Shown here: positions 5,501-64,000 of the stretch, in pieces
Layout of the letters: the number at the start of each line of letters is the position of its first letter
Position numbering within the stretch: the stretch's first letter is position 1
Assembly: GCA_000402775.1 (NCBI GenBank)
Contig: AQSC01000059.1
Coordinates: forward strand, 4,257 to 68,256
DNA: 64,000 nt
Direction of reading: 5' to 3'
Source of the DNA: Euryarchaeota archaeon SCGC AAA252-I15
GTDB lineage: Archaea > Altiarchaeota > Altiarchaeia > IMC4 > SCGC-AAA252-I15
Position numbers and translations under genes: made by a program
Notes under the pieces: model-generated
What the model saw: only the letters and a program-made list of their open reading frames with translations
Told to the model about the DNA's origin: nothing
Databases searched by the model: none

Positions 5501-8500
5501 TTCCGAACAGGAATGGATAGGTATCGTCGAGACCATAATCAGACGCCTTGTAATAACACAATGCACTACGGCTCGCTTTACGGGCGGATTACGACCACAA
5601 ACGATCAAAACCGCCAGGGGGGGAGGCCTCCCTACGGCTACCCGTTCAATGCCAAAGTCCAGGTACACGGGGACGTAATGGATGCCTGCTACTGGTCGAA
5701 TCTACCCCAGGATTTCTTTGGTTTTTTGAAAAACGACACGGAATCAAGGGTTGAATGGATTGGGGTTGGAGTACCACCCGCATCTTCAATGTATACTAAC
5801 AAGCTTGCCATACTAGGTTATCGTCCTTACGAGGCTTGGCTGGACAACCACGATGATACGGACAATGAGTATCATCATGGTTCAACCATCTTTGACAGGG
5901 TGATAATCTGGCTTCTGGGAGATCCAGTAGTAAAGGATAAAACAAAAGATATTGTTGTCATGGTCTATAATAAAAACAATAGATTACTGAGTGAAAATGT
6001 CACTCTAAACTGGTCTATTGAAGCCTTCAATGATGAACGAGTGAGTATCCTTGACATATCCGATGTATTGTATTACGACACTTGCGGGACTTCACGTTTC
6101 ATCCCGGTAAAAGGTGATCTAGTCTCTGGAATCGTTGACCACTGGAGTGATCAACTTCGGGGAATAATATTTTTGGGGGAATCACTATATGATGCGGCGA
6201 AAGGTCTTAGTGCCTTCCCTGAAGGCAAGGTCGATCCCCTAGATGACGAATACTCTTACAGCATTTATGGGGAAGTGGTAAACACATCATATCCCAGAAT
6301 AATCAATCTAACACTTAATTCAGTCTGGGAGATTACAGAAAGCTCCACGGGTGTTTACTCCATTGAAAACATGTCTTTTTTAAATGTTAATTACACACCC
6401 TTGATATTACATGCAAACCGAAGCAGTGGAGATGAGGTTATTCTCACTGTGTCAAACACCTCAAGCCAGACTGGAATAGCATTATTCGGAATCAACACCC
6501 TCTCTACCACTGATAAGGGGAAAAACTGGACTTTAAACGCAATAGAATGGTCCAACCCACTAGATGCAATCGCTCCAAATGTGACTAGTATCGACATTCA
6601 ACCATACTCATACAGTCCAGGTGACGAGATAATCTTCAATGTTGAGATAATCGACAACAGAAACTGGAGTGTCTATTATTCTACTCTAAATTATTCGAAA
6701 AATAATGTTAATTGGACTCTTGCCAATCTGACTCACAGGGTTGACCCTGACTCGTACACTTGTGAGTCAAAACCTTTTATGAATGATTGGAATCATTCAA
6801 TAGGTCCTTTCAATGAGTCTTTTATTGTTTATACTATCTCAGCGGTTGATACAACAGGGAATAAGGATGCTACGAGAATTAGATATTATGGTGTTGAGGA
6901 TAATGATCCGCCAGAGATTGCGAATATAGGTTTTACTCCTTATATGCCAAACTCAAGTGATAACGTTGTAATCAATTGTGATACAAATGAATTTTCGAAT
7001 GCAACGGTATTCTACCGGATTAAAGGGTCTTCAGACGCTTGGACTGAAGTAATCCAATCAGAATTCAAGGTGTTTAATCATACAATAAACACTGGGACAC
7101 ATAATGCAAGTACAAGCTACGAGTTTTGGCTTGAGCTGTGTGACCTCTCTGGAAACTGTGGTAATGAAACCAACGGCGGGATATACTACTGGTTTTGCAT
7201 CGAGCCTGGTTGCGAGAAGAATCCTCCAAACATCAATAACTACACTCCTGCAAATAATACAATATTCCCTCCGAACACAACTAACATCACTCTCGAATTG
7301 TCAACAGACGAGTGGGCTGAGTGCAGGTACTCTAACACGTCAGATAATCCATACGACCTTTTAGAATACGTTTTTAATGCAACACACAACACAACAAACA
7401 TCGCGTATCTTGCGATCTATAGCCAAAGTTACTACTACATTAAATGCAAGGACATGCTCGGAAACAAGCATAATGACAGTCTAATACTGTATTACTGGGT
7501 GGATACAGTCCCTCCAACAGTTACTTTAAATAACCCTCAAAATTTTTTGACGAATAGGGGGAGTATTGTCGCCTTCAAGTACACTCCAGACGACAATGGT
7601 ATGGTGGATCGTTGTGCAGTTTACTCGAACTTCGGTGGCTGGAGTATTGAGGTTACAGAATCCGATATTACAGATGGAGTTCAATCAGAAACTAACGGCA
7701 GGCTCTGTGATGGTACCTTCATTTGGAATGTGAAATGTTGGGATAGTGTTAATAACAGCGCCTTCGCAGTTGGAAACTACACAATCATTGTTAATTCAAC
7801 CATGCCCGTTCTAGTAATAGATACTGGTGAGGGTAGCGCCCTAGGACAACTCGATCAACCTGAAGGGTTGGATATATACCAGAATAGGATTTATGTGGCA
7901 GATACAAATAATCACCGAATACAAAAATTCAGCAGTACAACAGGGACATACCTTTCAAGTTTTGGAGGGCAAGGTGGTGGCATAACTAACTTGTATTATC
8001 CAGGTGATGTTGCTGTAGGCTACATACCTTACAATAGAACTGTAAATGAGACTACAAACGAATCAGAAATAATTAATATTTCTGTAATCTATGTGGCGGA
8101 CACTCAAAACCTTAGGGGTCAAATCTACTACGATTTCAACAACACATGGAAGCAGAATATTTCATCACAGAATCCAGACGATACGCAAAACCCTTTCTAT
8201 CTCGACGACCCGCAGGGAGTGGCAGGATACGCGGAGAGGGTATTTTTCTCATCCACAGACAGGGACAAAATCAACGTCTATAACGTGACAAACCTCACAT
8301 CCGAATTCAACATATCGACTGGAGGACTAAACCGCCCGCAGGGAGTAACAACAGACGGTAATAAAATCTATGTATCCAACACGCAAAACCACAACATTCT
8401 AATATACAACATGTACGGCACCTTCCTGGATTCAATTGGATCCTTTGGATCCCAGCCAGGCCAATTCAACAAACCAGAGGACGTGGCAACAGACAGTCAA

Positions 8501-9280
8501 GGAAATATTTACGTGGCAGACACATTAAACCACAGAATACAAGTCTTCAATTCAACCAAAGGCCAAATAAAAACCCTCGGAGTATACGGCTTTGGGGAAA
8601 CGCAGTTCAGAGAACCAAAAGGGGTGGCAATAGACGAGGAAGACAAACTCTTTATCTCAGACACAGACAACAGCAGAATCCAAGTCTTCAGCCTCTGCTA
8701 CGTGTCGACCTCAAGCTCGACAACATCAACCATAACATCAACAACAACATCAACAACAACATCAACCACAACATCATCAACAACATCATCAACAACGTCG
8801 ACGACAACGACAACGTCAATCGTGAGAAAAGACGTGGCATTAAACGAAGTAATGCCTTACACTGGAGACGGGTCATATGACTGGGTTGAATTATACAATA
8901 GAGGGAATCTTGACGTTGACTTGAGTGGATGGAATATCGGGGACGCTCCCGGTGGCTCAGGAAACCTTTCAATATCCTCCGGTCTAATAAACGTTAGCGG
9001 ATTCTTTCTGTTAAACTTCTCAACAGCCGGATTCAACATAAATGCGAATCCGGGTGAAGAAGTCGTACTCTACAACGAGACCGGCCACCGCGTCGACAAC
9101 CTCACCCTCTGGGCTTGGACCAGCATCAATCAATCGTATATGCGCTCTCCAGATGGCTGGGGTGATTGGATACTATCAAGCGACGATAACCCACCCTCTC
9201 CCGGCGAACCCAATGCTATACCATTTACTGGGAACCTTGTAACTGGGTGGAATCTGATTTCAATACCCTTAATCCTTTGA
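2573..9280 (+). CDS. Giant (2235 aa) secreted, sequon-rich surface protein. Signal peptide, six DUF4350/ThuA-like modules, Ig-like domains, six-bladed NHL propeller, Ser/Thr linker, lamin-tail domain, short hydrophobic C-terminus.
   Basis: N-terminal KKLPLKAEFIWLISVSLLLFPTLCSAQP. Module ends recur (GYHGWKLFDRSVDWLL, GYHGWKLFDRSVEWLL, YHHGSTIFDRVIIWLL, ILDKAIYWIEG). NHL blades include ...IYVADTNNHRIQKF, IYVADTLNHRIQVF, LFISDTDNSRIQVF. The LTD-like segment reads LNEVMPY..DWVELYNRG..DLSGW...VVLYNETGHRVD. NxS/T sequons are very frequent. Confidence 0.9.
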   Translation: MQPKKLPLKAEFIWLISVSLLLFPTLCSAQPTDEPVAYEFSYIKFAMFYNGVNLSTIENMIKTYIEAKGAQQFTLFDNSTAVSSLEEYDVIIQIGNYLNTTQIDAIEDANGSLILIHEGLTNINTTRWGIEQVYPPENISNLSFMIGADSGPTRGYPVNSTFSILKTSAVSFNVTGSHTQNLINTNNSRAVVASKQQQVGGKTILIGFNLTSYHEIRILDKAIYWIEGKSPTVQQNSRYCLYECLSPTVCRSCSDAVVVIEDPSAVTPQENSSYYFIYIQHGDIVNKIEYSEFTLANLSETKLIVVPKENKITSQIPSLRSDNKSLMFVHQGAFEAWNDHFNGFASELVNKTNITNGDAIIVQNREYELTYGYPVSSHIYTQNESTRVLAEVPGFTTLVNTSDGSLLSYVNGSSKVVFYGFDPYASQSTQCMPMGYHGGVLYLRAVEWALGNLNVGLQQPNEITFIVYNNNVMGFYGCGNTLTLSENSTANRLTGRYESGTVSFIDLSLANATNYSATSVVISISSERVSSKISDWVSLNKSLLLLYEGAVDVNITLLGGSSENDFTSTGPGYIRGNVAGSISRGYPYNAYVHTQNDSVRYLTDTPGFSSIVNYGSKDILQSRESGNRIVAYGFDPYQADVDSTPLCLGYHGWKLFDRSVDWLLYSLNISAPQAKRIAIQFYGANESWYCDTGQESKARRRISGKEYGGGNVSSIDLSVADLTDYSNTELIIIGDSWRVTSMISGWKDGGKDLMFLMHATTDATNTFGGSSGIDLTNDTRVNLTSYAGSLGFITEGYSPTGIIESDFALGRTWADISGFAILGRNVDSNTILSSKHTLSSDTVVYTLNLTEYDSPCRGYHGWKLFDRSVEWLLGELTVPIPRIDRIGLVVNILYNETHQCLLGEEDVTFERIESLENVSLAGINTTTFEISTISTADFTDTEAVVITDSNINAVGTYYEQILNGYTKATAASNVLMFRTGMDRYRRDHNQTPCNNTMHYGSLYGRITTTNDQNRQGGRPPYGYPFNAKVQVHGDVMDACYWSNLPQDFFGFLKNDTESRVEWIGVGVPPASSMYTNKLAILGYRPYEAWLDNHDDTDNEYHHGSTIFDRVIIWLLGDPVVKDKTKDIVVMVYNKNNRLLSENVTLNWSIEAFNDERVSILDISDVLYYDTCGTSRFIPVKGDLVSGIVDHWSDQLRGIIFLGESLYDAAKGLSAFPEGKVDPLDDEYSYSIYGEVVNTSYPRIINLTLNSVWEITESSTGVYSIENMSFLNVNYTPLILHANRSSGDEVILTVSNTSSQTGIALFGINTLSTTDKGKNWTLNAIEWSNPLDAIAPNVTSIDIQPYSYSPGDEIIFNVEIIDNRNWSVYYSTLNYSKNNVNWTLANLTHRVDPDSYTCESKPFMNDWNHSIGPFNESFIVYTISAVDTTGNKDATRIRYYGVEDNDPPEIANIGFTPYMPNSSDNVVINCDTNEFSNATVFYRIKGSSDAWTEVIQSEFKVFNHTINTGTHNASTSYEFWLELCDLSGNCGNETNGGIYYWFCIEPGCEKNPPNINNYTPANNTIFPPNTTNITLELSTDEWAECRYSNTSDNPYDLLEYVFNATHNTTNIAYLAIYSQSYYYIKCKDMLGNKHNDSLILYYWVDTVPPTVTLNNPQNFLTNRGSIVAFKYTPDDNGMVDRCAVYSNFGGWSIEVTESDITDGVQSETNGRLCDGTFIWNVKCWDSVNNSAFAVGNYTIIVNSTMPVLVIDTGEGSALGQLDQPEGLDIYQNRIYVADTNNHRIQKFSSTTGTYLSSFGGQGGGITNLYYPGDVAVGYIPYNRTVNETTNESEIINISVIYVADTQNLRGQIYYDFNNTWKQNISSQNPDDTQNPFYLDDPQGVAGYAERVFFSSTDRDKINVYNVTNLTSEFNISTGGLNRPQGVTTDGNKIYVSNTQNHNILIYNMYGTFLDSIGSFGSQPGQFNKPEDVATDSQGNIYVADTLNHRIQVFNSTKGQIKTLGVYGFGETQFREPKGVAIDEEDKLFISDTDNSRIQVFSLCYVSTSSSTTSTITSTTTSTTTSTTTSSTTSSTTSTTTTTSIVRKDVALNEVMPYTGDGSYDWVELYNRGNLDVDLSGWNIGDAPGGSGNLSISSGLINVSGFFLLNFSTAGFNINANPGEEVVLYNETGHRVDNLTLWAWTSINQSYMRSPDGWGDWILSSDDNPPSPGEPNAIPFTGNLVTGWNLISIPLIL
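8700..8820 (+). repeat. Tandem ACN/TCN codon repeats encoding the Ser/Thr linker of the giant protein
   Basis: acatcaacaacaacatcaacaacaacatcaaccacaacatcatcaacaaca..., translated as STSSSTTSTITSTTTSTTTSTTTSSTTSSTTSTTTTTS. Confidence 0.9.
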
Positions 9281-13604: not shown

Positions 13605-15707
13605 ATGAGAAATACTAAAAAATTGGACATTCTGGTTTTGATTAGTTGTTTTATTTTGATGGGAACAATGCTAGTGAGTGCTGAAGTTACAATCTCAACT
13701 AATATTGCTATGTCAGAGACCACAACAACTGTCTCAGCTACGACAACTACCATTCCACCGACCGAAACAACAACTTCAACCACGTACCCTTCTTGGGAAA
13801 CAACAACTTCAATCACGTACCCTACAACAACTTCGACTATATTCCCCCTAACAACTTCAACGACAATAACTGTTCCAGCTACAACAACAACCACAACCGT
13901 GCCACCAACTAACGAAATCCTCTTTTGTAATCCTGCTTGGATTAAACCAAATACTGGAGAATTAAGTTGTACATCAATAATTGATGTATATGCTAAAGTT
14001 GGTGAATTAGACAATCAAACAGTAACTATTTCTGATGCAGCACCTAGCATGGTTATAATGACACGTTTTGGCGAGAATTATTCTGGATTAAGAGTTGTTG
14101 GACGGAGTGATAGAGTACATGGAAGTCAAGAGATGTGTTTAATGATTCGTGCTGATTCAAATGAGGATGGCATATACGAAAAAGAGGTTACTAATTATTG
14201 TTGGGGTACCGTTCCATCAAATTATTCTTTTGACTCTAGTTTTGATGTTTCTGAGACAGGATCATCTATGCCTCTACTATTCTATCCTCCAACAGGTGTG
14301 ATAGCAGTAGATTATATAGCTCCGGTAATGACTACATTAACCGTCACTGGCCCATATCCAACTAACCCCCTAGTAGGAGAGTCATTTACGATAAGGGTAA
14401 CCAATGAAGCAGGAGACCCATTGCGTTTCATAAGAGTGGTCATAAGCCCCGGCCTGCACATAGCCACGTCAGATTCCGACGGTTACGCGAAATTCACGAT
14501 AAGTACCCCCGGAACATACACGGCTGCTGCGGCATCAACCCAATATGATGATGCAACCCCAATAAATGTTGTGGTATACGAGAGGCCCTCACTCTCCGTT
14601 TCAGTAGCCCCAACCGAACCTAAAATCGGGGACACAGTAACGATTACGGTGACGTCAGAAGATGGCGATCCAGTAAAGAAGGCGGATGTAAACGTCATCT
14701 ACTTGGGGCCTGAAGCGAGAGTGAACTACAAGGTCTTCTACGGAGACACTGACGAGAACGGAGAATACCAGTTCACTCCAACAAAAGAAGGTGACTACCC
14801 GATAACGGTTGTAGCGACACGCTACAGGGAGGCGGAGTTAACTGTGTCAGTAAAGTCCCGTGTTGTTACTACAACGACGGTTCCTGTGACAACAACTGTC
14901 CCAGTTACAACAACTAGCATTCTACCGACCACAACAACCATTATAGTTTCAACCACAGCAATACCACAACCAATTGACTCAGACAATGATGGAGTGACAG
15001 ATGATATAGATGCATGTCCAAACACGCCACAAAATTGTAATGTTGATTCAAGAGGTTGTGAGATAGACACAGACAAGGATGGAATCTGTGATGGAGTAGA
15101 TCAGTATCCAAGCGATTACGACAATGATGGTGTTGCGTCGAATATTGATTGCAACGACAACGATCCAAGCGAAATAAGAATCAAGGGCAATTGTGAAGTG
15201 CCGAATGTCATGGCACCGCACATCTACTCAAGAGTAGTGGATGCTGAAGTTGGCAAACCAGCGAGCATGATCGTTGACATACTAAACCCGATGGACAATC
15301 CAAATATTGAGGTTCAGGTTATGATAGATGTTCCAGATAACGTAAATGTGTTTGGCACAGATCTATCTAGTGGTGCGGCAACATACACTGGAATGTATAA
15401 TGTTCCACCAGGAGAAAGTTATCCAGTTAAGATAGAATTTACATCATATGTCGATGGCGATTACGGTATTGGAGTTACCTACCTGTGGAAGGTGAAGGGT
15501 GAAACGACGCTACATAAACTTACCGGTGTGAGGAAGATAGTGCATATCACACCTGCTGGAGTAACGCAACCACCGGCAGAAGTACCGACCAAGCCAATTT
15601 GGGAAAGTCCTATAGCATTGATAGCGGTTATTGCCGTAGTATGTCTTGGAATTGGGGTAATCCTCGGCATGAGACGGAAACCCCCAAAGGTAACTGTTGA
15701 GGAGTAG
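13605..15707 (+). CDS. Surface adhesin-like protein. Signal peptide, Thr-rich linkers, beta-sandwich repeats, thrombospondin-type-3-like Ca-binding Asp repeats, C-terminal TM anchor.
   Basis: MRNTKKLDILVLISCFILMGTMLVSAEV follows an AAGGGGGT SD. DSDNDGVTDDIDACPN...DTDKDGICDGVDQYPSDYDNDGV. C-terminal IALIAVIAVVCLGIGVILGMRRKPPK. Shares a near-identical segment with the ORF at 2-1441. Confidence 0.85.
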   Translation: MRNTKKLDILVLISCFILMGTMLVSAEVTISTNIAMSETTTTVSATTTTIPPTETTTSTTYPSWETTTSITYPTTTSTIFPLTTSTTITVPATTTTTTVPPTNEILFCNPAWIKPNTGELSCTSIIDVYAKVGELDNQTVTISDAAPSMVIMTRFGENYSGLRVVGRSDRVHGSQEMCLMIRADSNEDGIYEKEVTNYCWGTVPSNYSFDSSFDVSETGSSMPLLFYPPTGVIAVDYIAPVMTTLTVTGPYPTNPLVGESFTIRVTNEAGDPLRFIRVVISPGLHIATSDSDGYAKFTISTPGTYTAAAASTQYDDATPINVVVYERPSLSVSVAPTEPKIGDTVTITVTSEDGDPVKKADVNVIYLGPEARVNYKVFYGDTDENGEYQFTPTKEGDYPITVVATRYREAELTVSVKSRVVTTTTVPVTTTVPVTTTSILPTTTTIIVSTTAIPQPIDSDNDGVTDDIDACPNTPQNCNVDSRGCEIDTDKDGICDGVDQYPSDYDNDGVASNIDCNDNDPSEIRIKGNCEVPNVMAPHIYSRVVDAEVGKPASMIVDILNPMDNPNIEVQVMIDVPDNVNVFGTDLSSGAATYTGMYNVPPGESYPVKIEFTSYVDGDYGIGVTYLWKVKGETTLHKLTGVRKIVHITPAGVTQPPAEVPTKPIWESPIALIAVIAVVCLGIGVILGMRRKPPKVTVEE

Positions 15708-30550: not shown

Positions 30551-31215
30551 ATGGAAAACATAGAAAAATCGCTTAAGGCACTTCAAGACGGCTCTTTCAT
30601 ACTCGTGCACGATTCCTCTGGGAGAGAAGACGAAACCGATCTTATAGTCGCCGCCGAAAAAATCACTCCAGCTCACGTACGCACGATGAGAAACGAGGGG
30701 GGAGGATTGATATGCACTGCCCTGGCAAAAGATTTAGCCGAAAAATTAAGTCTAGTCTTCATCCAAGACATATACCAAGCCGCAGCAAAATCCTTTCAAA
30801 TCCTCCCGGAACTTAAAGCCGACGACATACCCTACGACGAAAAATCATCTTTTTCCATAACCGTAAACCACAGGAAAACATTCACAGGAATAACCGACAC
30901 AGACAGGGCGCTCACCATACGGGAACTAGCCTACATCGCGAAAGCCGAGCCAAACCCACAGGCGTTTGGCTTGAATTTCCGAACACCCGGGCACATTCCA
31001 CTTCTTATCTCTTCAGGATTGGGCAAGCGGGAGGGACACACAGAACTTTCAATAGGACTTCTTGAGATGGCGGGGCTTACTCCAGTCTCCGTGGTTTGTG
31101 AGATGATGGACGATGAAACCTTCAAAGCCTTGACGGCGGAGAAGGCGAAGGCTTATGCAGAGAAAAACGGTCTAGTATTCCTTGAAGGATCTGAAATTCT
31201 AAATGCATATGAGAA

Positions 31216-31228
<13 letters not shown>
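30551..31228 (+). CDS. ribB: 3,4-dihydroxy-2-butanone-4-phosphate synthase
   Basis: VHDSSGREDETDLIVAAEKITPAHVRTMRNEGGGLICTAL and RTPGHIPLL. Confidence 0.9.
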
Positions 31229-32314
<1,086 letters not shown>

Positions 32315-49246: not shown

Positions 49247-49259
49247 AAAGGGGTTTGTT

Positions 49260-49333
49260 GGGTCCGTCGAGATTTGAACTCGAGTTCCTAGCTCCCAAAG
49301 CTAGAAGGATGGGCCAAGCTACCCCACGGACCC
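49260..49333 (-). tRNA. tRNA-Pro (anticodon UGG), no intron, CCA not encoded
   Basis: Minus strand: GGGUCCG UG GGGU AGCUUGGCCC AUCC U(U) CUAGC UUUGGGA GCUAG GAAC UCGAG UUCAAAU CUCGA CGGACCC, folded as a cloverleaf by hand. Confidence 0.85.
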
Positions 49334-49417
49334 TTCCGTGTCATCGAGCCGTAGCGAAGATGGCACCCGCATGTCAACTGGGCGTGACAGTTGGGGGTCA
49401 AGCTACCCCACGGACCC
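49334..49417 (+). repeat. 65-nt two-hairpin insert plus a 19-nt duplicate of the tRNA-Pro 5' end
   Basis: caagctaccccacggaccc occurs at 49315-49333 and again at 49399-49417. Hairpins GTGTCATC/GATGGCAC (49338-66) and TCAACTG/CAGTTGG (49374-94) lie between. Confidence 0.8.
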
Positions 49418-49483
49418 GGTGGAGAGAGAAATTGGTTTATTAATTCAGGGTGTTGGATTTAAAAAATGATTTTTTTAATAACC

Positions 49484-50599: not shown

Positions 50600-50893
50600 G
50601 GCTCACATCGCTTAGTTGTGTGTGATTCAGCCACATCACCCCAACCACCTGGTGTGCCCGCTCAGTAGGGGGGTGGGCACACCGCATGGGGGGTGGATGA
50701 ATTTCTAGGATTTCTAATTCAGGATTATCGAGCCGCGAAGCGGTGAAGATAGTCCATTTGATGAACCTTTAGTAAAGGTTCTGCGAAAGAGAGCTGAAAC
50801 CAACCTTTTTCTTTGTCGGAGTTTCCCGACGAGAAACCGCGAGTTAATTGAGGGGTCTTACCGACCCCCCGGTAACGCACATTATAGAAGTAT
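50600..50893 (+). repeat. 290-nt non-coding hairpin array containing relatives of all three gene-5' inserts
   Basis: Hairpins GGTGTGCCC/GGGCACACC (50651-83), GGATTATC/GATAGTCC (50722-55), GAACCTTT/AAAGGTTC (50763-81), a ...GTCGG/CCGAC... hairpin within the 50811-50835 stretch, and a GGGGTC-ttacc-GACCCC hairpin at about 50851-50867. No ORF. Confidence 0.75.
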
Positions 50894-54007: not shown

Positions 54008-54716
54008 TTATCTATTAATCTTTTCGGAAATCTTTCTGAAAACACCTATTAGAGTGAAAGCCTCCCTACCCGACACGAACGCCCTGCCTAAAAGACTTCG
54101 AAAAGTTTTTTTCGCAAGCCCCCTCTCATAATCCCCGACGTGAACGGAATCAATTACAGAATCATACTTTTCAATCAACACATCTTTTTCCACCTTGTTG
54201 AGTCTCCTAAACTTTTTCCGCTTGTGTAATTTTTTTTCAAACTCGCTTCTCTTAAGCTCATAGAGTATGATGGCTGCCGACTGAGCTATATTGAGTGTGG
54301 GATAACTCGGGTTTGCGGGAATGCAAACTAGCACATCACATGACTTGATTTCATAATTGTTTAAACCATGGTCTTCACGTCCAAACACCAGTCCGATTTT
54401 ACCTGAAGTCTTAAGGGATTCCTGAAGGTGTTCAGGGGTAACTGGGTTTCTCATACTGTTTTTATCAGTGGCTGATATCGCGGAAGTTGCAACAAGAAAA
54501 TCAAACTCATTTTTCACTTCCTTAAAGTTTTTGAAAACGCGGGCGTTTTCAAGGACGTCAATGGCATGCATGCTCATCTTCCTTGCTTCCCCCCCCAAGT
54601 TTTGGGGGGTTTACGAGAACCAATTCTTCGAAACCGAAGTTTTTCATGATGCGGGCGATAGAACCTATGTTCCCATCATACAAGGGTTCGACCAAGACTA
54701 CGGAGTATTCTGCCAT
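54008..54716 (-). pseudogene. SpoU/TrmJ-like RNA 2'-O-methyltransferase, reading frame broken in an 8-nt homopolymer
   Basis: N-terminal part [37 protein letters not shown] (frame a). Remainder [19 protein letters not shown]...GLVFGREDHGL...CIPANPSYPTLNIAQSAAIILYEL (frame b). The frames join if the C8 run at 54589-96 is 7 nt. Confidence 0.75.
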
Positions 54717-54784
54717 TTTATTAGGTATCGTCGAGCAAGCGGGAGCGAGCGAAGACGGCACATTTGTCGTCGGCAAACTCCGAC
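54717..54784 (+). repeat. 68-nt two-hairpin insert between the trmJ-like 5' copies
   Basis: GTATCGTC/GACGGCAC (54725-61) then ATTTG and GTCGG/CCGAC (54769-84). 54763-87 matches 50811-35 at 23/25 in reverse-complement orientation; the segment is near-palindromic. Confidence 0.75.
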
Positions 54785-54870
54785 AAACCGAAGTTTTTCA
54801 TGATTCGTGCGATAGAACCTATGTTCCCATCATACAAGGGTTCGACCAGGATGATTGAGTAATCCGCCAT
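54721..54870 (-). other. Decoy ORF: diverged duplicate of the first 28 codons of the trmJ-like gene fused to insert sequence (49 codons)
   Basis: [28 protein letters not shown] + [28 protein letters not shown] double stop ends 1 nt before the downstream ATG at 54716. Confidence 0.6.
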
Positions 54871-54913
54871 AGTATTAATTTATTGTGGTTTATTGAAATA
54901 ACTTAATTGATTC

Positions 54914-56425: not shown

Positions 56426-56515
56426 TATTATTATTGTATATAAGTTACAATAGTATTTTACTCTGTTTAATAATTTTTTCGATAAAATTGAGAATCAATA
56501 AAATTTTAGTTATTA

Positions 56516-56929
56516 TTATTGTATTTTATTTACAATAATGTCTTGAAATTCAACTGAATAATTCCTCTTCAAGACTAAAAACAGGTAAATCTTCTTAAAT
56601 TGCGGATAAATTAAGTAAAAAAGACGAATCTTCCACTCATCAAACATTGAAATCCTCCCGTAATCCGAAAAGATCAGCTTGTCATCACGCTTCCCATCAT
56701 CGATTAATTTCACCTTACCCACAATAGGACACTCAACAACTTCACCCTGCTTAAGCCTTCGACCTAAAACTATCGCATCCTCCCCCAAACCATCCTCTGA
56801 AACAGTGCCTTCCACAAAACCATAATTGAATGGATTCGGAAACGGGGAAAACAACTCCTTGACAAATTCATTCCCCTCCAACCTATACTTCACAAAACTC
56901 CACTTCGGAGTCTCGACGACGACTCGCAT
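56516..56929 (-). CDS. Inorganic pyrophosphatase-like protein (short, divergent)
   Basis: VVVETPKWSFVKYRLE...PFPNPFNYGFVEGTVSEDGLGEDAIVLG...GKVKLIDDGKRDDKLIF resembles family I PPase, but DGDPLD is replaced by DGLGED. Confidence 0.55.
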   Translation of the reverse strand: MRVVVETPKWSFVKYRLEGNEFVKELFSPFPNPFNYGFVEGTVSEDGLGEDAIVLGRRLKQGEVVECPIVGKVKLIDDGKRDDKLIFSDYGRISMFDEWKIRLFYLIYPQFKKIYLFLVLKRNYSVEFQDIIVNKIQ

Positions 56930-60216: not shown

Positions 60217-60543
60217 TTACCTTAATATTATGTCTAGTATGGGGTTTACGACGATCTTGAATAAGAGAGCCGCAACCATTATCATAACTCCCCAACCAAT
60301 GAACTGTATTCCCTTGTCCATGAAACTTAGGGGAAGCATCACATATAAATATAATTTAGGCCACAACCACATGCAAAATCCTATAAACACAAAAAGCAGG
60401 CCAAACCCCATCGCCTTGCGAGGCAGAACATTCCTAGCCTTATGGACGTGGGAAATGTTTGAAGATTTCTCATCTTCCTCAATCAGCTCTATGTCCCCTA
60501 TTGTGCCAGAAGCATCCACACCAGAACGATCCCTACCCTTCAT
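60217..60543 (-). CDS. Hypothetical membrane protein (2-3 TM)
   Basis: Hydrophobic segments GFGLLFVFIGFCMWLW and IGWGVMIMVAALLF. Confidence 0.45.
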   Translation of the reverse strand: MKGRDRSGVDASGTIGDIELIEEDEKSSNISHVHKARNVLPRKAMGFGLLFVFIGFCMWLWPKLYLYVMLPLSFMDKGIQFIGWGVMIMVAALLFKIVVNPILDIILR

Positions 60544-60589
60544 CCTAGTTTAATCATTCGCATTAATGTATTTATAGACGGTATCCACG

Positions 60590-61819
60590 TCAATCTTTAA
60601 AGCGGACTGAAATACTTTCCTTGTGTTTCACAAGGCCTTCCGCTTCAGCGAGTGTTTCAATTGTTTCCTTAAGGTTTTCCAATCCTTCCTTTTCAATGCG
60701 TGTTATCTGTGTTGTTTTCAAAAAATCTCTGACTGAAAGCGGAGACGCATAACGTGCGGAGCCGGCCGTAGGCAGCACGTGGTTTCCGCCGGAAGCATAG
60801 TCACCAGCCGCAACCGGGGAATAATGGCCGACAAAGATTGCTCCGGCATTTTTGATTTTTTTTGCCACATCCTTGGCATTCCTAGTCATTATCTCAAGGT
60901 GTTCGGGGGCGAGTCCGTCCACGACTTCAATTGCACGGTCAATAGAGTCGACGGTTATGGCAGTAAACTGTTTGCCATCTGCGTCCACCTTTCTGGGGAG
61001 GTTTTTTTCAGTAGTTACGAGAATGCATCTTGCGTCGGGGTCGTGTTCAGCTTGCGCGAGTAAATCAGCGGTAATAAACTCTGGATTTGCCGTCTCATCC
61101 GCTATTATCGCAATCTCGCTTGGACCTGCGGACATGTCAATGTCGACTTTCCCGTATACTAGCGTTTTAGCTGCCATGACGTATTTGTTGCCGGGACCCA
61201 CGATCTTTGACACTGACTGGATTGATTCCGTACCCCACGCGAGCGCGCCAATTGCCTGGGCGCCTCCGACACAGTAGAGCTCATCCACTCCGACTAGAGA
61301 ACATGCCGCACGGACTTCAGGACTGATGGGAGGTGGCGACACTACGACGATTCGCTCAACACCCGCGACTTTAGCCGGGATGCAGTTCATAAGAACGGTC
61401 GAAGGATAAGAAGCTCTTCCCCCGGGCACATAGCAACCCACAGAGTCTATTGGATTGACTCGCTCTCCAACTAGAACTCCACTTTCAATTTCTTCATCCC
61501 ATGATAAGTTTACTTTCTCAAATTGTTTCTCGTGGAATTTTTTTATGTTTTTTTGGGCGTGTTTTAAGGCCTTAAAAAATTTTTCGTCGACTTTTTTTAG
61601 TGAGTCTTCGATTTCCTTTGAACTTACAGTTAGATTCTGTTTGTTTAATTGAAAGTCATCGAATTTTTCCGTGAATTTGAATAATGCAGTGTCGCCGTCT
61701 TTTCTGACTTCGTCTATGATGGATGCAACAACATCGGATAATTCAGGGAATCGTTGACTTCCCAAGCTGACTATTCTTTCTATTTCAGCCGCATCTTCAA
61801 AGTAATCAATGATTTTCAT
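60590..61819 (-). CDS. hisD: Histidinol dehydrogenase
   Basis: VGCYVPGGRASYPSTVLM, GGAQAIGALAWGT, GPGNKYV, AGPSEI, QAEHD, APEHLE. Confidence 0.95.
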   Translation of the reverse strand: MKIIDYFEDAAEIERIVSLGSQRFPELSDVVASIIDEVRKDGDTALFKFTEKFDDFQLNKQNLTVSSKEIEDSLKKVDEKFFKALKHAQKNIKKFHEKQFEKVNLSWDEEIESGVLVGERVNPIDSVGCYVPGGRASYPSTVLMNCIPAKVAGVERIVVVSPPPISPEVRAACSLVGVDELYCVGGAQAIGALAWGTESIQSVSKIVGPGNKYVMAAKTLVYGKVDIDMSAGPSEIAIIADETANPEFITADLLAQAEHDPDARCILVTTEKNLPRKVDADGKQFTAITVDSIDRAIEVVDGLAPEHLEIMTRNAKDVAKKIKNAGAIFVGHYSPVAAGDYASGGNHVLPTAGSARYASPLSVRDFLKTTQITRIEKEGLENLKETIETLAEAEGLVKHKESISVRFKD

Positions 61820-62850
61820 AAGTCCTCCAAAGCCGCGAATAAAATTTCGTTTTCCGAAGAAGTTCCCACAGTAACCCTTACGTATTCTCCAGGAAAACCT
61901 TTAAAGGACCCGAACGCCCTCACAACAAAATCTTTATCAAGAAACTTGTTAAAACAGTCCTGAGCGCTCAATGGAGAAGTATCAAACAGCAAGAAGTTCG
62001 CTTCAGAAGGGAAAACCTTGAATTTATTTGAAATTGCTTTTTCTAAAATACTTCGGTCGGCCTTTATTTTCTCGACACAATCTCTCATGTATTCCAAATC
62101 ATCAAGAGCCGTAAGAACTGCTTCTTGGGCTAGATTATTAACGTTGAACGGTGGCTTCGTCCGGATTATTAATGAGATAACCTCTGGGCTTGCTATCGCG
62201 TATCCGACTCGGAGCCCTGCGAGTGCGAAGGCTTTGGCGAAAGTCCGAATGATTATCAGGTTGTCGTATTTTGGTAGTAGTGAAAGTGAAGTTTTGTTTG
62301 AGAATTCATAGTATGCTTCGTCAACCACAGTGGGTTTGCCAAGGTTAAGCACTTCCTCAATATCTTTGGGGGAAATTATGTTTCCGGTTGGATTGTTGGG
62401 ACTGCACAAGAAAAGAAGGTTAGCTTTGTCAGCAGCTTTTAAAAATTCTTCCAAGGGGAATGTGAAATCCCCCTTTAACTGAACTTCATCGTATTCCATG
62501 CCATTTGTCGCGGACACGATCCCATACTCTGAAAACGAGGGGTAAACTCCCAGAGACGGTCCCCTAAAAGTCTTTACGATAAGATCAATTAGCTCGTCTG
62601 AACCATTTCCAATGATTACATTTTCGGGTGCCACACCAGCGTATTCAGCCGTCTTAACCCTCACCAACTCGTCTTTGTAAGGATACCTGTAAATAGAGGG
62701 CACGCTACCTTTAAGCGTCTCAATCACCTTCGGTGAGGGACCGTAATTATTTTCATTCGAGGAAAGCTTCACAGCCCCCTCCACGGTCCTTCCCGGAGTA
62801 TAGGTTGCTATCCCCCTAATCCATGGTTTCATACTATCTTCGGCTTCCAT
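61816..62850 (-). CDS. hisC: Histidinol-phosphate aminotransferase
   Basis: KLSSNENNYGPSP, GNGSDELIDL, NPNNPTG, RTFAKAFALAGLRVGY (PLP Lys). 4-nt overlap with hisD. Confidence 0.9.
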   Translation of the reverse strand: MEAEDSMKPWIRGIATYTPGRTVEGAVKLSSNENNYGPSPKVIETLKGSVPSIYRYPYKDELVRVKTAEYAGVAPENVIIGNGSDELIDLIVKTFRGPSLGVYPSFSEYGIVSATNGMEYDEVQLKGDFTFPLEEFLKAADKANLLFLCSPNNPTGNIISPKDIEEVLNLGKPTVVDEAYYEFSNKTSLSLLPKYDNLIIIRTFAKAFALAGLRVGYAIASPEVISLIIRTKPPFNVNNLAQEAVLTALDDLEYMRDCVEKIKADRSILEKAISNKFKVFPSEANFLLFDTSPLSAQDCFNKFLDKDFVVRAFGSFKGFPGEYVRVTVGTSSENEILFAALEDL

Positions 62851-62936
62851 CCTAGTTTACTTTTTTCATATACCAAGATAAATACGGGTTCATCCCCGTC
62901 GCATTGAACACAAATGTTTTTTTGATTATCCTCCAT
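62829..62936 (-). CDS. Small ORF (35 aa) overlapping the hisC start
   Basis: GGAGGTG SD, then MEDNQKNICVQCDGDEPVFILVYEKSKLGWKPKIV. The stop lies 20 nt inside hisC. Confidence 0.3.
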   Translation of the reverse strand: MEDNQKNICVQCDGDEPVFILVYEKSKLGWKPKIV

Positions 62937-62964
62937 TTTTCTTTAATACACCTCCAAATCTTTC

Positions 62965-63048
62965 CTAACTTTCTTTCTCGTGCTTCCACTCAAGCGGCAA
63001 CACGTTGTATGGATCAAATTCCAGTTTCTTTTTCAAATGTTTTTCCAT
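62965..63048 (-). CDS. Small ORF (27 aa)
   Basis: GGAGGTGAAAGGAAA precedes the ATG. MEKHLKKKLEFDPYNVLPLEWKHEKES. Confidence 0.25.
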   Translation of the reverse strand: MEKHLKKKLEFDPYNVLPLEWKHEKES

Positions 63049-63566
63049 TTTCCTTTCACCTCCAAAATTTTTGTATGGAACTTTGCGTGAACCTGTGATA
63101 AGCGTCGAAAAAAGCATCAAAGCCAAACCAAGAGCTTGATACCGAACTCAAAAAGAGAATTTAGACGCTCACACACACTTAGCACACAATTTGCGTGCCA
63201 GTGCATGTGGTTTTAGTCACATACGGCACCCACACTAAACCATTCATGGCCTGGGCTTCCCGCCCTCTTAAAAAGTGTGGGTACAAAAATTCCATTCTTT
63301 CGACTATGTTATACGCAATACATATATAAAAAACATTTCGAAAACAATTAGGTCTTAAAAACCTTCTTAAATAAGTATATTCAATACAATAATTAATTGA
63401 ATTTATTTGGAGGAACTTAAAACAACACAATGTATAATAATATGGTTTTTTCAGGTTTCTCTAAGTATCTGGCGTTATTACCCCATGATTATTCTCAATG
63501 CATCAATAAATCACACCCAATTCATCCGTTAATTAATGTGTGTAAATCCAAAAGGAGGTGAATGAC

Positions 63567-63776
63567 ATGGTAGCGAAAAAGAAAAAGACTGTGAAGAAAA
63601 AAGTTGTGAAGAAAAATCCGATGAAAAAAGTAGTGAAAAAGAAGGTAGTGAAAAAAGTAGTCAAGAAAAAAGTTGTGAAAAAGATGCCTGTGAAAAAAGT
63701 TGTGAAAAAAAAGACAGTAAAGAAAAAACCGGTTAAAAAAACAGTCAAGAAAAAAACGACGAAGAAGAAGAGATAA
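63567..63776 (+). CDS. Extremely Lys-rich repeat protein (histone-H1-like low-complexity, 69 aa)
   Basis: AAAGGAGGTGA SD lies 6 nt before the ATG. MVAKKKKTVKKKVVKKNPMKKVVKKKVVKKVVKKKVVKKMPVKKVVKKKTVKKKPVKKTVKKKTTKKKR. Confidence 0.65.
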   Translation: MVAKKKKTVKKKVVKKNPMKKVVKKKVVKKVVKKKVVKKMPVKKVVKKKTVKKKPVKKTVKKKTTKKKR

Positions 63777-64000
63777 AAGCGTTTGTTGAGGTTTTACTTG
63801 TTACCCTCACCGCATATTTTTTTTTTAACTCACTTATCTGAATTCCCTCTAAAGCCTCAGCTTCAGGTAATCCAGAAACCATCGCAAGCTGAAGCGCCTG
63901 CTCTTGACTGATCAAATCCTTGTGAGAGTGAGCGTCAGTGTCAACGATAAAAGACGCACCTGCCAAAAGGCCCACTTCCGCAACATGCTTATTACCTGTA
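63745..64000 (-). CDS. PHP-domain phosphoesterase, 5'-truncated by the window edge
   Basis: The frame is open to nt 64000 (...TGNKHVAEVGLLAGASFIVDTDAHSHKDLI), matching the C-terminal PHP His/Asp motif. Could be a HisJ-type histidinol phosphatase, unproven. Confidence 0.5.
   Translation of the reverse strand, partial: TGNKHVAEVGLLAGASFIVDTDAHSHKDLISQEQALQLAMVSGLPEAEALEGIQISELKKKYAVRVTSKTSTNAFISSSSSFFS

Follow-up and report, generated by a model that had tools for sequence, protein, structure and literature searches.

The 64,000-nucleotide stretch of contig AQSC01000059.1 from Euryarchaeota archaeon SCGC AAA252-I15 (assembly GCA_000402775.1, positions 4,257 to 68,256; hereafter, the window) encodes a single tRNA gene, tRNA-Pro(UGG), which is preceded by a partial copy of its own 5' end and a 65-nt insert. 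Here, we describe the insert, the family of small hairpin elements to which it belongs, and the routes by which such elements may enter genes. A preliminary description, made from the letters of the window, had placed an intact tRNA-Pro(UGG) on the minus strand, and two programs agree: ARAGORN reports the gene at 49259-49333, and a local search with the Rfam tRNA model RF00005 scores the downstream copy at 50.9 bits over model positions 1-71 (cut-off 29). A whole-window Rfam search at gathering thresholds returned zero matches, tRNA-Pro included, which we take to be a filter effect; for short RNAs, a negative obtained in fast-filter mode is not reliable. Features of the locus, in the order of the minus strand, are as follows.

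49436-49466, minus strand: two AT-rich, putatively promoter-like boxes upstream of repeat copy 1
49395-49417, minus strand: repeat copy 1, a partial tRNA 5' end (perfect over 49399-49417), in the place of the sister species' tRNA 5' end
49334-49398, minus strand: 65-nt inserted element, short form; missing in the sister species contig L004 and identical in three other assemblies
49375-49393, minus strand: first hairpin of the insert (hp1), CAACTG-TCACGCC-CAGTTG, a perfect 6-bp stem
49338-49366, minus strand: second hairpin of the insert (hp2), GTGCCATCTTCGCT-ACG-GCTCGATGACAC, the near-invariant family signature
49259-49333, minus strand: intact, intron-less tRNA-Pro(UGG) (ARAGORN and Rfam); its first 19 nt (49315-49333) are repeat copy 2

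A tRNA gene behind a copy of its own 5' end

Read along the minus strand, the two AT-rich boxes are followed by an 18-nt spacer, the 19-nt copy 1, the 65-nt insert and the complete tRNA-Pro. The perfect repeat, GGGTCCGTGGGGTAGCTTG, occupies 49315-49333 and 49399-49417, just as the preliminary description had it, and a repeat search extends it to 23 nt (49311-49333 versus 49395-49417; 96% identity, spacing 84) with one G-to-A mismatch. By our own arithmetic, about 1e-4 perfect 19-mers repeated within 400 nt are expected by chance in 64 kb; the repeat is not attributable to chance in a sequence of this length. The insertion point, which follows tRNA nucleotide 19, is in the D-loop at the conserved G18/G19 pair. 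In the minus-strand reading, the AT-rich boxes are TTTTTTAAAT at 49457-49466 and TTAATAAA at 49436-49443. Both stand upstream of copy 1, at a distance from the tRNA start that is equal to that kept in the sister species, and the 65-nt insert holds no AT-rich box, which bears out the earlier claim that such boxes occur only upstream of the partial copy. We regard the plus-strand open reading frames (ORFs) that cross the locus antisense to the tRNA as spurious.

The insert is laid out as ACCCC, hp1, the spacer ACATGCGG, hp2, and GGAA. The two-hairpin outline given in the preliminary description stands, with hp1 a perfect hairpin and hp2 a weak, imperfect one; the whole 65 nt fold at the level of shuffled sequence (z = +0.14), and neither hairpin is unusually stable. 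Several identities for this RNA were tried and rejected. No C/D or H/ACA small RNA or ribozyme has an Rfam match here, and a C/D-like GAUGA and CUGA pair lies on the same strand only 2 nt apart, which makes a K-turn impossible. Searches against Rfam 15 (E up to 10 at the window locus, E up to 1 at five related loci) returned only the tRNA and chance-level matches. Likewise, hp2 is not coding sequence: across the family described below, its loop changes in length by non-multiples of 3.

An empty site in a sister species

Three other assemblies of the window population were found through the neighbouring AIM24-family gene. The duplication and insert are unchanged in all of them, namely a JGI contig (L001) that is 99.74% identical over 12.7 kb and two Logan assemblies (L002, L003) that are ~100% identical. 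Four assemblies from three samples, the window included, thus agree base for base across the tRNA-Pro locus, which counters the suspicion, raised in the preliminary description, that the duplication might be an assembly error. Short repeats can confuse assemblies, and contigs of the sister species' metagenome-assembled genome (MAG) do end inside the trmJ and ribC repeats described below; similarly, copy 1 and the insert can be drawn together as a loose cloverleaf, as would suit a decayed tandem duplicate of the tRNA gene. Against both stand the concordant assemblies, the lack of tRNA similarity past nucleotide 23, the silence of ARAGORN and the Rfam tRNA model over the 84 nt (where we therefore reject a second tRNA or tRNA pseudogene), and the homology of the insert to inserts at non-tRNA loci. 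We consider an artefact or decayed duplicate extremely unlikely.

The sister species is represented by L004, a GTDB species representative labelled 'Methanobacteriota archaeon' with 95% AIM24 protein identity and ~92% flank DNA identity to the window; TrmJ homologues group the sister species and the window lineage with Altiarchaeales. In L004, the identical upstream region (...AATTTCTCTCTCCACC; ...TTTCTCTCTCCACC) is joined directly to tRNA +1, both AT-rich boxes are present, and the 84 nt are missing. This locus, on one sister-species contig, is the empty site that the preliminary description had proposed to seek among relatives. Because the promoter region abuts tRNA +1 in L004, it has stayed with the partial copy in the window. 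The insert occurs in all window-species assemblies examined and is absent from the one sister-species contig; since it is missing in the sister species, the insertion is recent.

The sister gene (L004 6781-6929) has a feature of its own, a 74-nt intron at the canonical position 37/38 with a strict hBHBh' motif, and its predicted spliced product is identical to the window's intron-less gene. These two very closely related species thus differ by the loss of an intron and the gain of an element.

The same layout at trmJ and ribC

The preliminary description had noted the same layout at two protein genes of the window. Both trmJ and ribC, the archaeal riboflavin synthase gene, do show one repeat copy, an insert and a second repeat copy.

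54785-54877, minus strand: upstream partial trmJ 5' copy (-8 to +85), at its native distance (43 nt) from the divergent herA
54724-54784, minus strand: trmJ insert of 61 nt, second copy of the element family (hp1 54769-54784, hp2 54725-54761)
54631-54723, minus strand: downstream trmJ 5' copy, the start of full-length trmJ
31215-31253, plus strand: upstream partial ribC start (-1 to +38), including the ribB stop codon
31254-31384, plus strand: ribB-ribC insert of 131 nt with four hairpins (z = -3.75) and no hp2
31385-31423, plus strand: downstream ribC copy, the start of full ribC

The trmJ repeat spans 93 nt at 88% identity (spacing 154 nt), and the ribC repeat spans 39 nt at 95% (spacing 170 nt). 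The tRNA-Pro and trmJ inserts are homologous: they share the blocks TGCCRTCTTCGCT and GCTCGAYGAYAC, which occur without mismatch nowhere else in the window; hp2 has the general form GTGCCRTCTTCGCT-loop-GCTCGAYGAYAC; and a perfect hairpin, unrelated in sequence, stands ahead of each pair of blocks. The ribC insert lacks hp2, and only its first hairpin is hp1-like, resembling hp1 of a short element on the metagenomic contig L150.

At trmJ, the insert is present in a sister-species contig (L025) that begins inside it, and two distant relatives (L020, L023) have herA and trmJ 36-43 nt apart with no insert. Gene callers start trmJ 15 codons too early, inside the insert. One extra G in a G run (54589-54596) shifts the frame of the window's trmJ; with one G less there, L001 retains an intact ORF of 235 aa, and the additional base may reflect either a sequencing error or true phase variation of the run. 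Differences between the trmJ copies are not adenine-specific, which led us to reject a diversity-generating retroelement.

At ribC, the insert is present in six of six contigs of the window species, and the sister MAG (GCA_043823295.1) holds both states on different contigs: an empty ribB-ribC allele (L156, 2960-3246), in which ribB and ribC overlap as in other archaea, and a filled allele (L155, 1-420). The filled allele carries window-like single-nucleotide polymorphisms (SNPs) for ~130 nt after the insert and is then identical to the empty allele, a pattern suggesting that the insertion was introgressed through homologous recombination, or else that the bin mixes two strains. Overall, the three insertions differ in age: that at trmJ predates the species split, that at ribC is still polymorphic, and that at tRNA-Pro is found only in the window species among the assemblies examined.

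Partial and functional copies differ mostly at synonymous sites. The variants in copy 1 of L001 are precisely those of the functional copy in the sister species. Together with the SNPs of L155, this indicates that homologous recombination with other alleles refreshes the duplicated segments, and the pattern of synonymous differences therefore does not discriminate among insertion routes. Selection on the partial copies through translation of copy 1, or a foreign origin for them, was considered on the strength of these differences and set aside, as recombination with empty alleles can produce them (ribC alleles, L001).

Other repeats and hairpins were noted in the window. The synteny between the two species is broken: L004 1-5338 joins window 60498-64000 to 50782-50252, and ~10 kb including trmJ and herA are placed differently. 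Beyond the break (window region 50600-50893), a hairpin, GTCGGAGTTTCCCGAC, at 50815-50830 agrees with the trmJ insert's hp1 in 17 of 18 positions, with several other intergenic hairpins nearby. Directly downstream of herA, an AT-rich 34-nt direct repeat (56426-56544; 82% identical, spacing 85) was noted. The coding tandem repeats at 8696-8818, 13722-14966 and 63581-63775 are of two kinds: very large secreted or surface proteins contain Thr/Ser-rich 12-nt units, and a Lys/Glu-rich 12-15-nt unit lies near the window end.

A family of hairpin elements in low-GC metagenomic contigs

A first, loose DNA pattern for the element was unspecific, and its 57 IMG/VR matches were all due to chance; a tightened pattern was used for one metagenome scan. 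This returned 70 matches in the metagenome collection, 62 of which we reject as chance, being on contigs of 50-71% GC, without hp1 and without the ...GACAC end. The remaining eight contigs (L095, L097, L103, L107, L117, L118, L150 and L151) are low in GC (27-48%) and carry a full hp2 with the consensus GTGCC(A/G)TCTTCGCT - 2 to 11 nt - GCTCGA(C/T)GACAC; one of them, L150, has a second, slightly divergent copy. Further copies of the insert, which the preliminary description had suggested looking for, are thus found at trmJ in the window and on at least eight contigs from about six metagenomes. A perfect hp1 lies 4-10 nt upstream of hp2 in seven of the eight; the exception, L103, begins 3 nt before hp2, leaving hp1 out of view.

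The two hairpins are conserved in different ways. At least six different stem sequences occur in hp1, all of them perfect over 5-9 bp, and the closest relative of hp1 in the tRNA-Pro insert is that of the L150 element at tRNA-Phe. By comparison, hp2 is near-invariant, with a constant C/A mismatch and one covarying pair (A-T/G-C, with two A/C exceptions). As the hairpins are not unusually stable, the conservation of hp2 is one of sequence and points to recognition by a protein.

Family members come in short and long forms. The short forms, at 61-75 nt, consist of hp1, spacer, hp2 and a few bases (two window copies, L118 and one L150 copy), and the long forms, at 138-400 nt, also contain an AT-rich stretch and more hairpins, ending on the far side in a T-rich, terminator-like hairpin in L097, L117 and the second L150 copy. 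The element is found in either orientation relative to the gene and also in intergenic DNA. Most family contigs carry archaeal genes, among them proteasome and exosome subunits, Cbf5, HisRS and an archaeal rib operon; L103 and L151 have none of these markers, and an archaeal origin is not established for these two. L097 and L117 share an identical 37-nt hp1-hp2 start at two different tRNA genes (tRNA-Ser at its 5' end in L097, tRNA-Arg at its 3' end in L117) and differ in their flanking repeats, which we read as evidence of movement.

Between their repeats (61-400 nt), the copies contain no ORF of their own, bar a copied gene-end fragment in L151. That fragment belongs to a 150-290 nt unit within which the element lies in a 27-28% GC organism (L151 66-350; L103 1-1055, where the unit occurs twice). 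The L151 unit includes the final ~20 codons of a gene found whole in L103; the element has therefore taken a piece of a former flank with it. In the second L103 unit, hp1 is degenerate and the first five bases of hp2 are replaced. A viral origin was considered and rejected: the IMG/VR, annotated phage and annotated plasmid collections hold no family match beyond the chance matches to the loose pattern.

Neighbouring genes of two contigs merit description. Just 3' of tRNA-Ser in L097, outside the repeats, lies a Phage_integrase-family ORF (Pfam; 1259-2464), and elsewhere on that contig a 32-nt repeat (5599-5780; 81% identical, spacing 150) flanks a T-rich, terminator-like hairpin. On L151, cas1 (Pfam 4e-70) and a Cas2-like ORF recognised by eye (502-2323) adjoin the family member at a distance of ~380 nt, with no CRISPR array visible in the 500 nt beyond them. 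Beside these genes, a further gene-end duplication surrounds an insert that lacks hp2: 41 nt of an acyl-CoA synthetase 3' end recur 486 nt away with 78% identity. We reject a Cas1 link and treat the cas pair as a neighbour: a 17-nt flanking repeat of its own surrounds the L151 element, and cas genes are missing from the vicinity of the other copies.

Flanking repeats at genes reach from a hairpin loop or palindrome to the gene end

Outside trmJ and ribC, the flanking repeats, with lengths that count the perfect part only, duplicate the following targets.

Window tRNA-Pro: 19-nt repeat; tRNA positions 1-19
L097 tRNA-Ser: 22-nt repeat; -2 to +20
L150 tRNA-Phe: 20-nt repeat; -5 to +15
L117 tRNA-Arg: 18-nt repeat; A58 to 2 nt past the discriminator
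L150 short copy: 18-nt repeat; last 18 nt of an ORF, including the stop codon
L151: 17-nt repeat (88% identical); an AT-rich palindrome

At the intergenic copies L095 and L107, no repeat of at least 11 nt was detected. Duplication length across the family thus ranges over 17-93 nt, with 17-22 nt in most cases, 39 nt at ribC (95%) and 93 nt at trmJ (88%). On its inner side, the repeat stops within a hairpin loop or palindrome: the D-loop in three cases, the T-loop in one, CTTCG-GTTT-CGAAG at trmJ and TCGCGA at ribC. The nine different flanking repeats share no common motif, and the bases at the left junction vary (TTG, TTT, CAT, ATT, CAC, AAC and CTT) without any fixed tetra- or pentanucleotide.

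Repeats that run from a stem-loop to the end of a gene recall integrative elements, and the locus could be the remnant of a larger tyrosine-integrase element that recombined site-specifically in the D-loop, brought its own attP tRNA 5' end, and lost its interior to leave attL, ~65 nt and attR. The repeats here run from a D- or T-loop to the gene end, as in tRNA-targeting integrative elements (the T-loop att class), and the L117 case (tRNA-Arg, A58 to +2) fits this. Copy 1 matches the tRNA over 23 nt with one mismatch, as attP-type homology often does, and the copies at trmJ, ribC and the L118 hairpin differ by synonymous or compensatory changes, like different functional alleles, although recombination with empty alleles, as at ribC, also explains such differences. 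We nevertheless find this origin quite improbable. One site-specific integrase could not serve the at least nine targets, without shared sequence, at which hp1-hp2 is found; separate losses of the interior would hardly have spared the same 60-75 nt in every case (window A and B, L118, L150a); and no copy holds an integrase fragment, the sole integrase ORF (L097) lying on the other side of its tRNA.

A product of repair or replication of the FoSTeS (fork stalling and template switching) or MMBIR (microhomology-mediated break-induced replication) type deserves even less weight, and we judge it very unlikely. Here, the fork would stall at a hairpin in a highly transcribed gene, switch to a hairpin-rich template elsewhere and return upstream, leaving an insert between two copies of the duplicated stretch. 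Such a course would suit the variable duplication length, the 0-5 nt (possibly up to 14 nt) of filler at the junctions, the 4-nt microhomology GTTG at the L150 tRNA-Phe junction, an inner boundary that is always at a hairpin or palindrome, and the pieces of previous flank that some copies carry (L151 versus L103). It leaves unexplained why the same hp2, to the base, was inserted across organisms of 27% to 48% GC and why near-identical elements sit at different tRNA genes.

A probable mobile element that duplicates the gene end

In tRNA-Pro, an insertion from a multi-copy family is seen against an empty site, and across the family different targets show a recurring duplication of the gene end. 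We propose that the 65-nt insert is probably one copy of a small mobile element, non-coding and non-autonomous, that duplicated the gene end as it inserted. The element would have entered the tRNA-Pro D-loop after nucleotide 19, presumably moved in trans by an enzyme not encoded in it, and insertion would have duplicated everything from that point back to tRNA +1. The outcome would be the old promoter, a dead 19-nt (23-nt) 5' fragment, the element and a complete tRNA gene. This agrees with the preliminary description, which had read the layout as an insertion at tRNA position 19/20 with a 19-nt duplication, or a miniature att-flanked element; the L004 empty site, the homology of the insert to those at trmJ and unrelated sites, and the presence or absence of the ribC insert among close relatives all speak for it. 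Insertions inside genes are seen only with a duplication reaching the gene end, as only these leave a working gene under selection.

Two routes lead. By route (a), a transposition that favours hairpin loops would make staggered cuts some two helical turns apart and fill them in; this accounts for the 17-22 nt mode and not for the 39- and 93-nt repeats, and insertions in tRNA genes would be seen only in the D-loop or T-loop because only these loops are within reach of the gene end. By route (b), the element would bring a copy of the gene end and recombine with the gene at a hairpin or palindrome, in the manner of tRNA-targeting integrative elements, which accounts for repeats that end at the gene boundary and for the classical-looking T-loop case at tRNA-Arg and leaves unexplained how one family serves many unrelated targets with no integrase. 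The data do not separate these two. By route (c), template switching during replication or repair would account for the variable length, filler bases and 4-nt microhomology and not for the invariant hp2.

Several observations weigh against a mobile element of this kind. No transposase or integrase is associated with any family copy. As to mechanism, no convincing terminal inverted repeats were seen by eye in short or long forms, an inverted-repeat search having been run on L151 only. Duplication length varies beyond the reach of any standard cut-and-fill transposase, and the outer repeat end lies 0-8 nt outside the gene in every genic case, unlike the ends left by random staggered cuts; the latter pattern fits selection combined with a hairpin-loop preference, or an element-borne copy of the gene end. 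Moreover, hp2 is so conserved across lineages that some function must attach to it. Finally, the predicted folding of the tRNA precursor is not the one that a plain leader would favour, as set out below.

Leader or intron

Because the insert contains no AT-rich box and the upstream region is conserved, transcription most likely starts at the old place, upstream of copy 1. The precursor would then carry a leader of at least 84 nt, which RNase P would cut off at the 5' end of the complete tRNA copy. Removal of the leader by RNase P would be the simplest maturation, though predicted folding makes it less than obvious. The minimum-energy fold (-69.0 kcal/mol) uses copy 1 as the 5' strand of the acceptor stem, a fold with enforced D-arm pairing between copy 1 and copy 2 reaches -65.8 kcal/mol, and a free leader with a canonical cloverleaf reaches -61.8 kcal/mol, less stable than the folds with a copy-1 acceptor.

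With the D-arm fold, the cell could treat the 84 nt as an intron. Under this alternative, the segment from copy 1 position 20 to copy 2 position 19 would be a non-canonical D-loop intron, cut by the splicing endonuclease and ligated by RtcB, with copy 1 as the 5' exon. The AGCU at positions 14-17 of both copies would pair, flanked by the helices ACCCC/GGGGU and GGG(U)/(G)CCC. A scan for bulge-helix-bulge (BHB) motifs ranks this D-arm pairing first at the locus (GGGT/AGCT/TG/ACCCC ... GGGGT/AGCT/TG/GCCC, spacing 84), with a 4-bp AGCU/AGCU helix, flanking helices of 4 and 5 bp, and two UG bulges at the exact ends of the perfect repeat. Both this fold and the unconstrained minimum, with its copy-1 acceptor strand, are more stable than leader plus cloverleaf, and the lineage does use BHB splicing, as the strict hBHBh' intron of the sister tRNA-Pro indicates. 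Joining nucleotides 1-19 of copy 1 to nucleotide 20 onward of copy 2 gives a tRNA, which is true by construction from the repeat.

The same construction weakens the case: duplicating a D-arm that holds the palindrome AGCU makes the AGCU pairing automatic, so that it is not independent evidence. Each bulge has 2 nt rather than 3 (3 would require the opening of two closing pairs, with bases left unpaired opposite), and the motif is not the canonical 3-4-3. Beyond this locus, the tRNA-Ser case (L097) has no palindromic 4-mer in the right place. We also rejected BHB splicing at the protein genes, where candidates are low-scoring and wobble-rich: at trmJ, the candidate is in frame, nearly all of its pairs are G-U, and it spans 157 nt against a repeat spacing of 154, and at ribC, the best candidates span 40-49 nt against 170. 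The element also occurs in both orientations and in intergenic DNA, and a complete downstream tRNA copy makes splicing unnecessary. The palindrome lacking in tRNA-Ser and the poor trmJ and ribC candidates therefore place the intron second to the mobile element, and we hold it to be unlikely.

Relation to known elements

Integrative elements of tRNA genes use tyrosine-recombinase att sites that fall into anticodon-loop and T-loop sublocation classes. The present family resembles them in that its repeats are the end of the target gene, running from a stem-loop to the tRNA terminus, and regenerate the gene; the tRNA-Arg case (18 nt) is exactly so. It differs in having no integrase, in a unit of 61-400 nt, in the presence of one family at many unrelated targets, including the starts and ends of protein genes, and in that most of its tRNA cases are at the 5' side (D-loop), where they separate the gene from its promoter.

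MITEs (miniature inverted-repeat transposable elements) and the non-autonomous, hairpin-ended derivatives of IS200/IS605 (palindrome-associated transposable elements, PATEs) are likewise small, non-coding, multi-copy and hairpin-bearing, occur in both orientations, and are moved in trans, as we suppose for this family. MITEs give a short, fixed target-site duplication (TSD), and IS200/IS605 elements give none. The family shares with MITEs its small size, lack of coding capacity, multiple copies and insertion polymorphism; it has no terminal inverted repeats, its duplications of 17-93 nt are neither short nor fixed, and no target tetranucleotide is conserved.

Three further systems share single traits with it. 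Non-canonical archaeal BHB tRNA introns, for which transposition has been proposed in Thermoproteales, also place extra sequence at D- or T-loop positions; a helix-bulge-helix-bulge-helix fold can be drawn at tRNA-Pro, and the lineage has BHB introns. Unlike in such introns, the bulges at tRNA-Pro are 2 nt, the exon is duplicated, a complete tRNA copy lies downstream, and the same element occurs in protein genes and intergenic DNA. Casposons have TSDs of 14-15 bp and target tRNA-Pro 3' ends, and Cas1-Cas2 prefers palindromic DNA. Unusually long target duplications, tRNA gene targets and a palindrome at the target are common ground; in contrast to casposons, the family lacks terminal inverted repeats and a cas1 gene in the element (cas1 lies only beside the L151 copy), and its duplications are variable at 17-93 nt. 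IS1634-type elements are DDE elements of ~1.5-2 kb with inverted repeats, a transposase gene, and long, variable direct repeats; the long, variable duplication is shared, and their size, inverted repeats and transposase gene are not.

In its behaviour the element is close to a MITE or a miniature integrative element, yet it lacks defining features of every family considered. Literature searches on Altiarchaeota introns, archaeal miniature elements at tRNA genes, long duplications and the motifs found no such element, though coverage was incomplete and this is absence of evidence only. As a probable small, non-autonomous mobile element, it stands apart through its long duplications, which restore gene ends, and its conserved hairpin.

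Implications

A bolder proposal goes further: the hp1-hp2 unit could be a new kind of archaeal mobile DNA that inserts at hairpin loops and copies up to the gene end, with an enzyme that is possibly Cas1-like or a structure-specific recombinase recognising hp2. Its tRNA duplication would create a BHB-like fold, the insert would be treated as leader or intron, and the process would offer a route to non-canonical tRNA introns and disrupted tRNA genes. Taken as a whole, we regard this proposal as speculative and unlikely.

If the mobile-element reading is true, a tiny hairpin element lands in essential genes of uncultivated archaea, including Altiarchaeota-like organisms and at least three other low-GC populations, without killing them, because its insertion duplicates the gene end. 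For annotation, such insertions create false start sites and upstream ORFs, and assemblies break at the repeats. For mobile elements, duplications of 17-93 bp without inverted repeats, together with a 26-nt motif (the two hp2 blocks) kept across 27% to 48% GC, point to an insertion enzyme. Finally, for tRNA biology, a promoter split from its gene by the gene's own fragment and 65 nt would be a natural test of fold choice between RNase P and the splicing endonuclease, and the locus bears on the origin of non-canonical tRNA introns and split tRNA genes.

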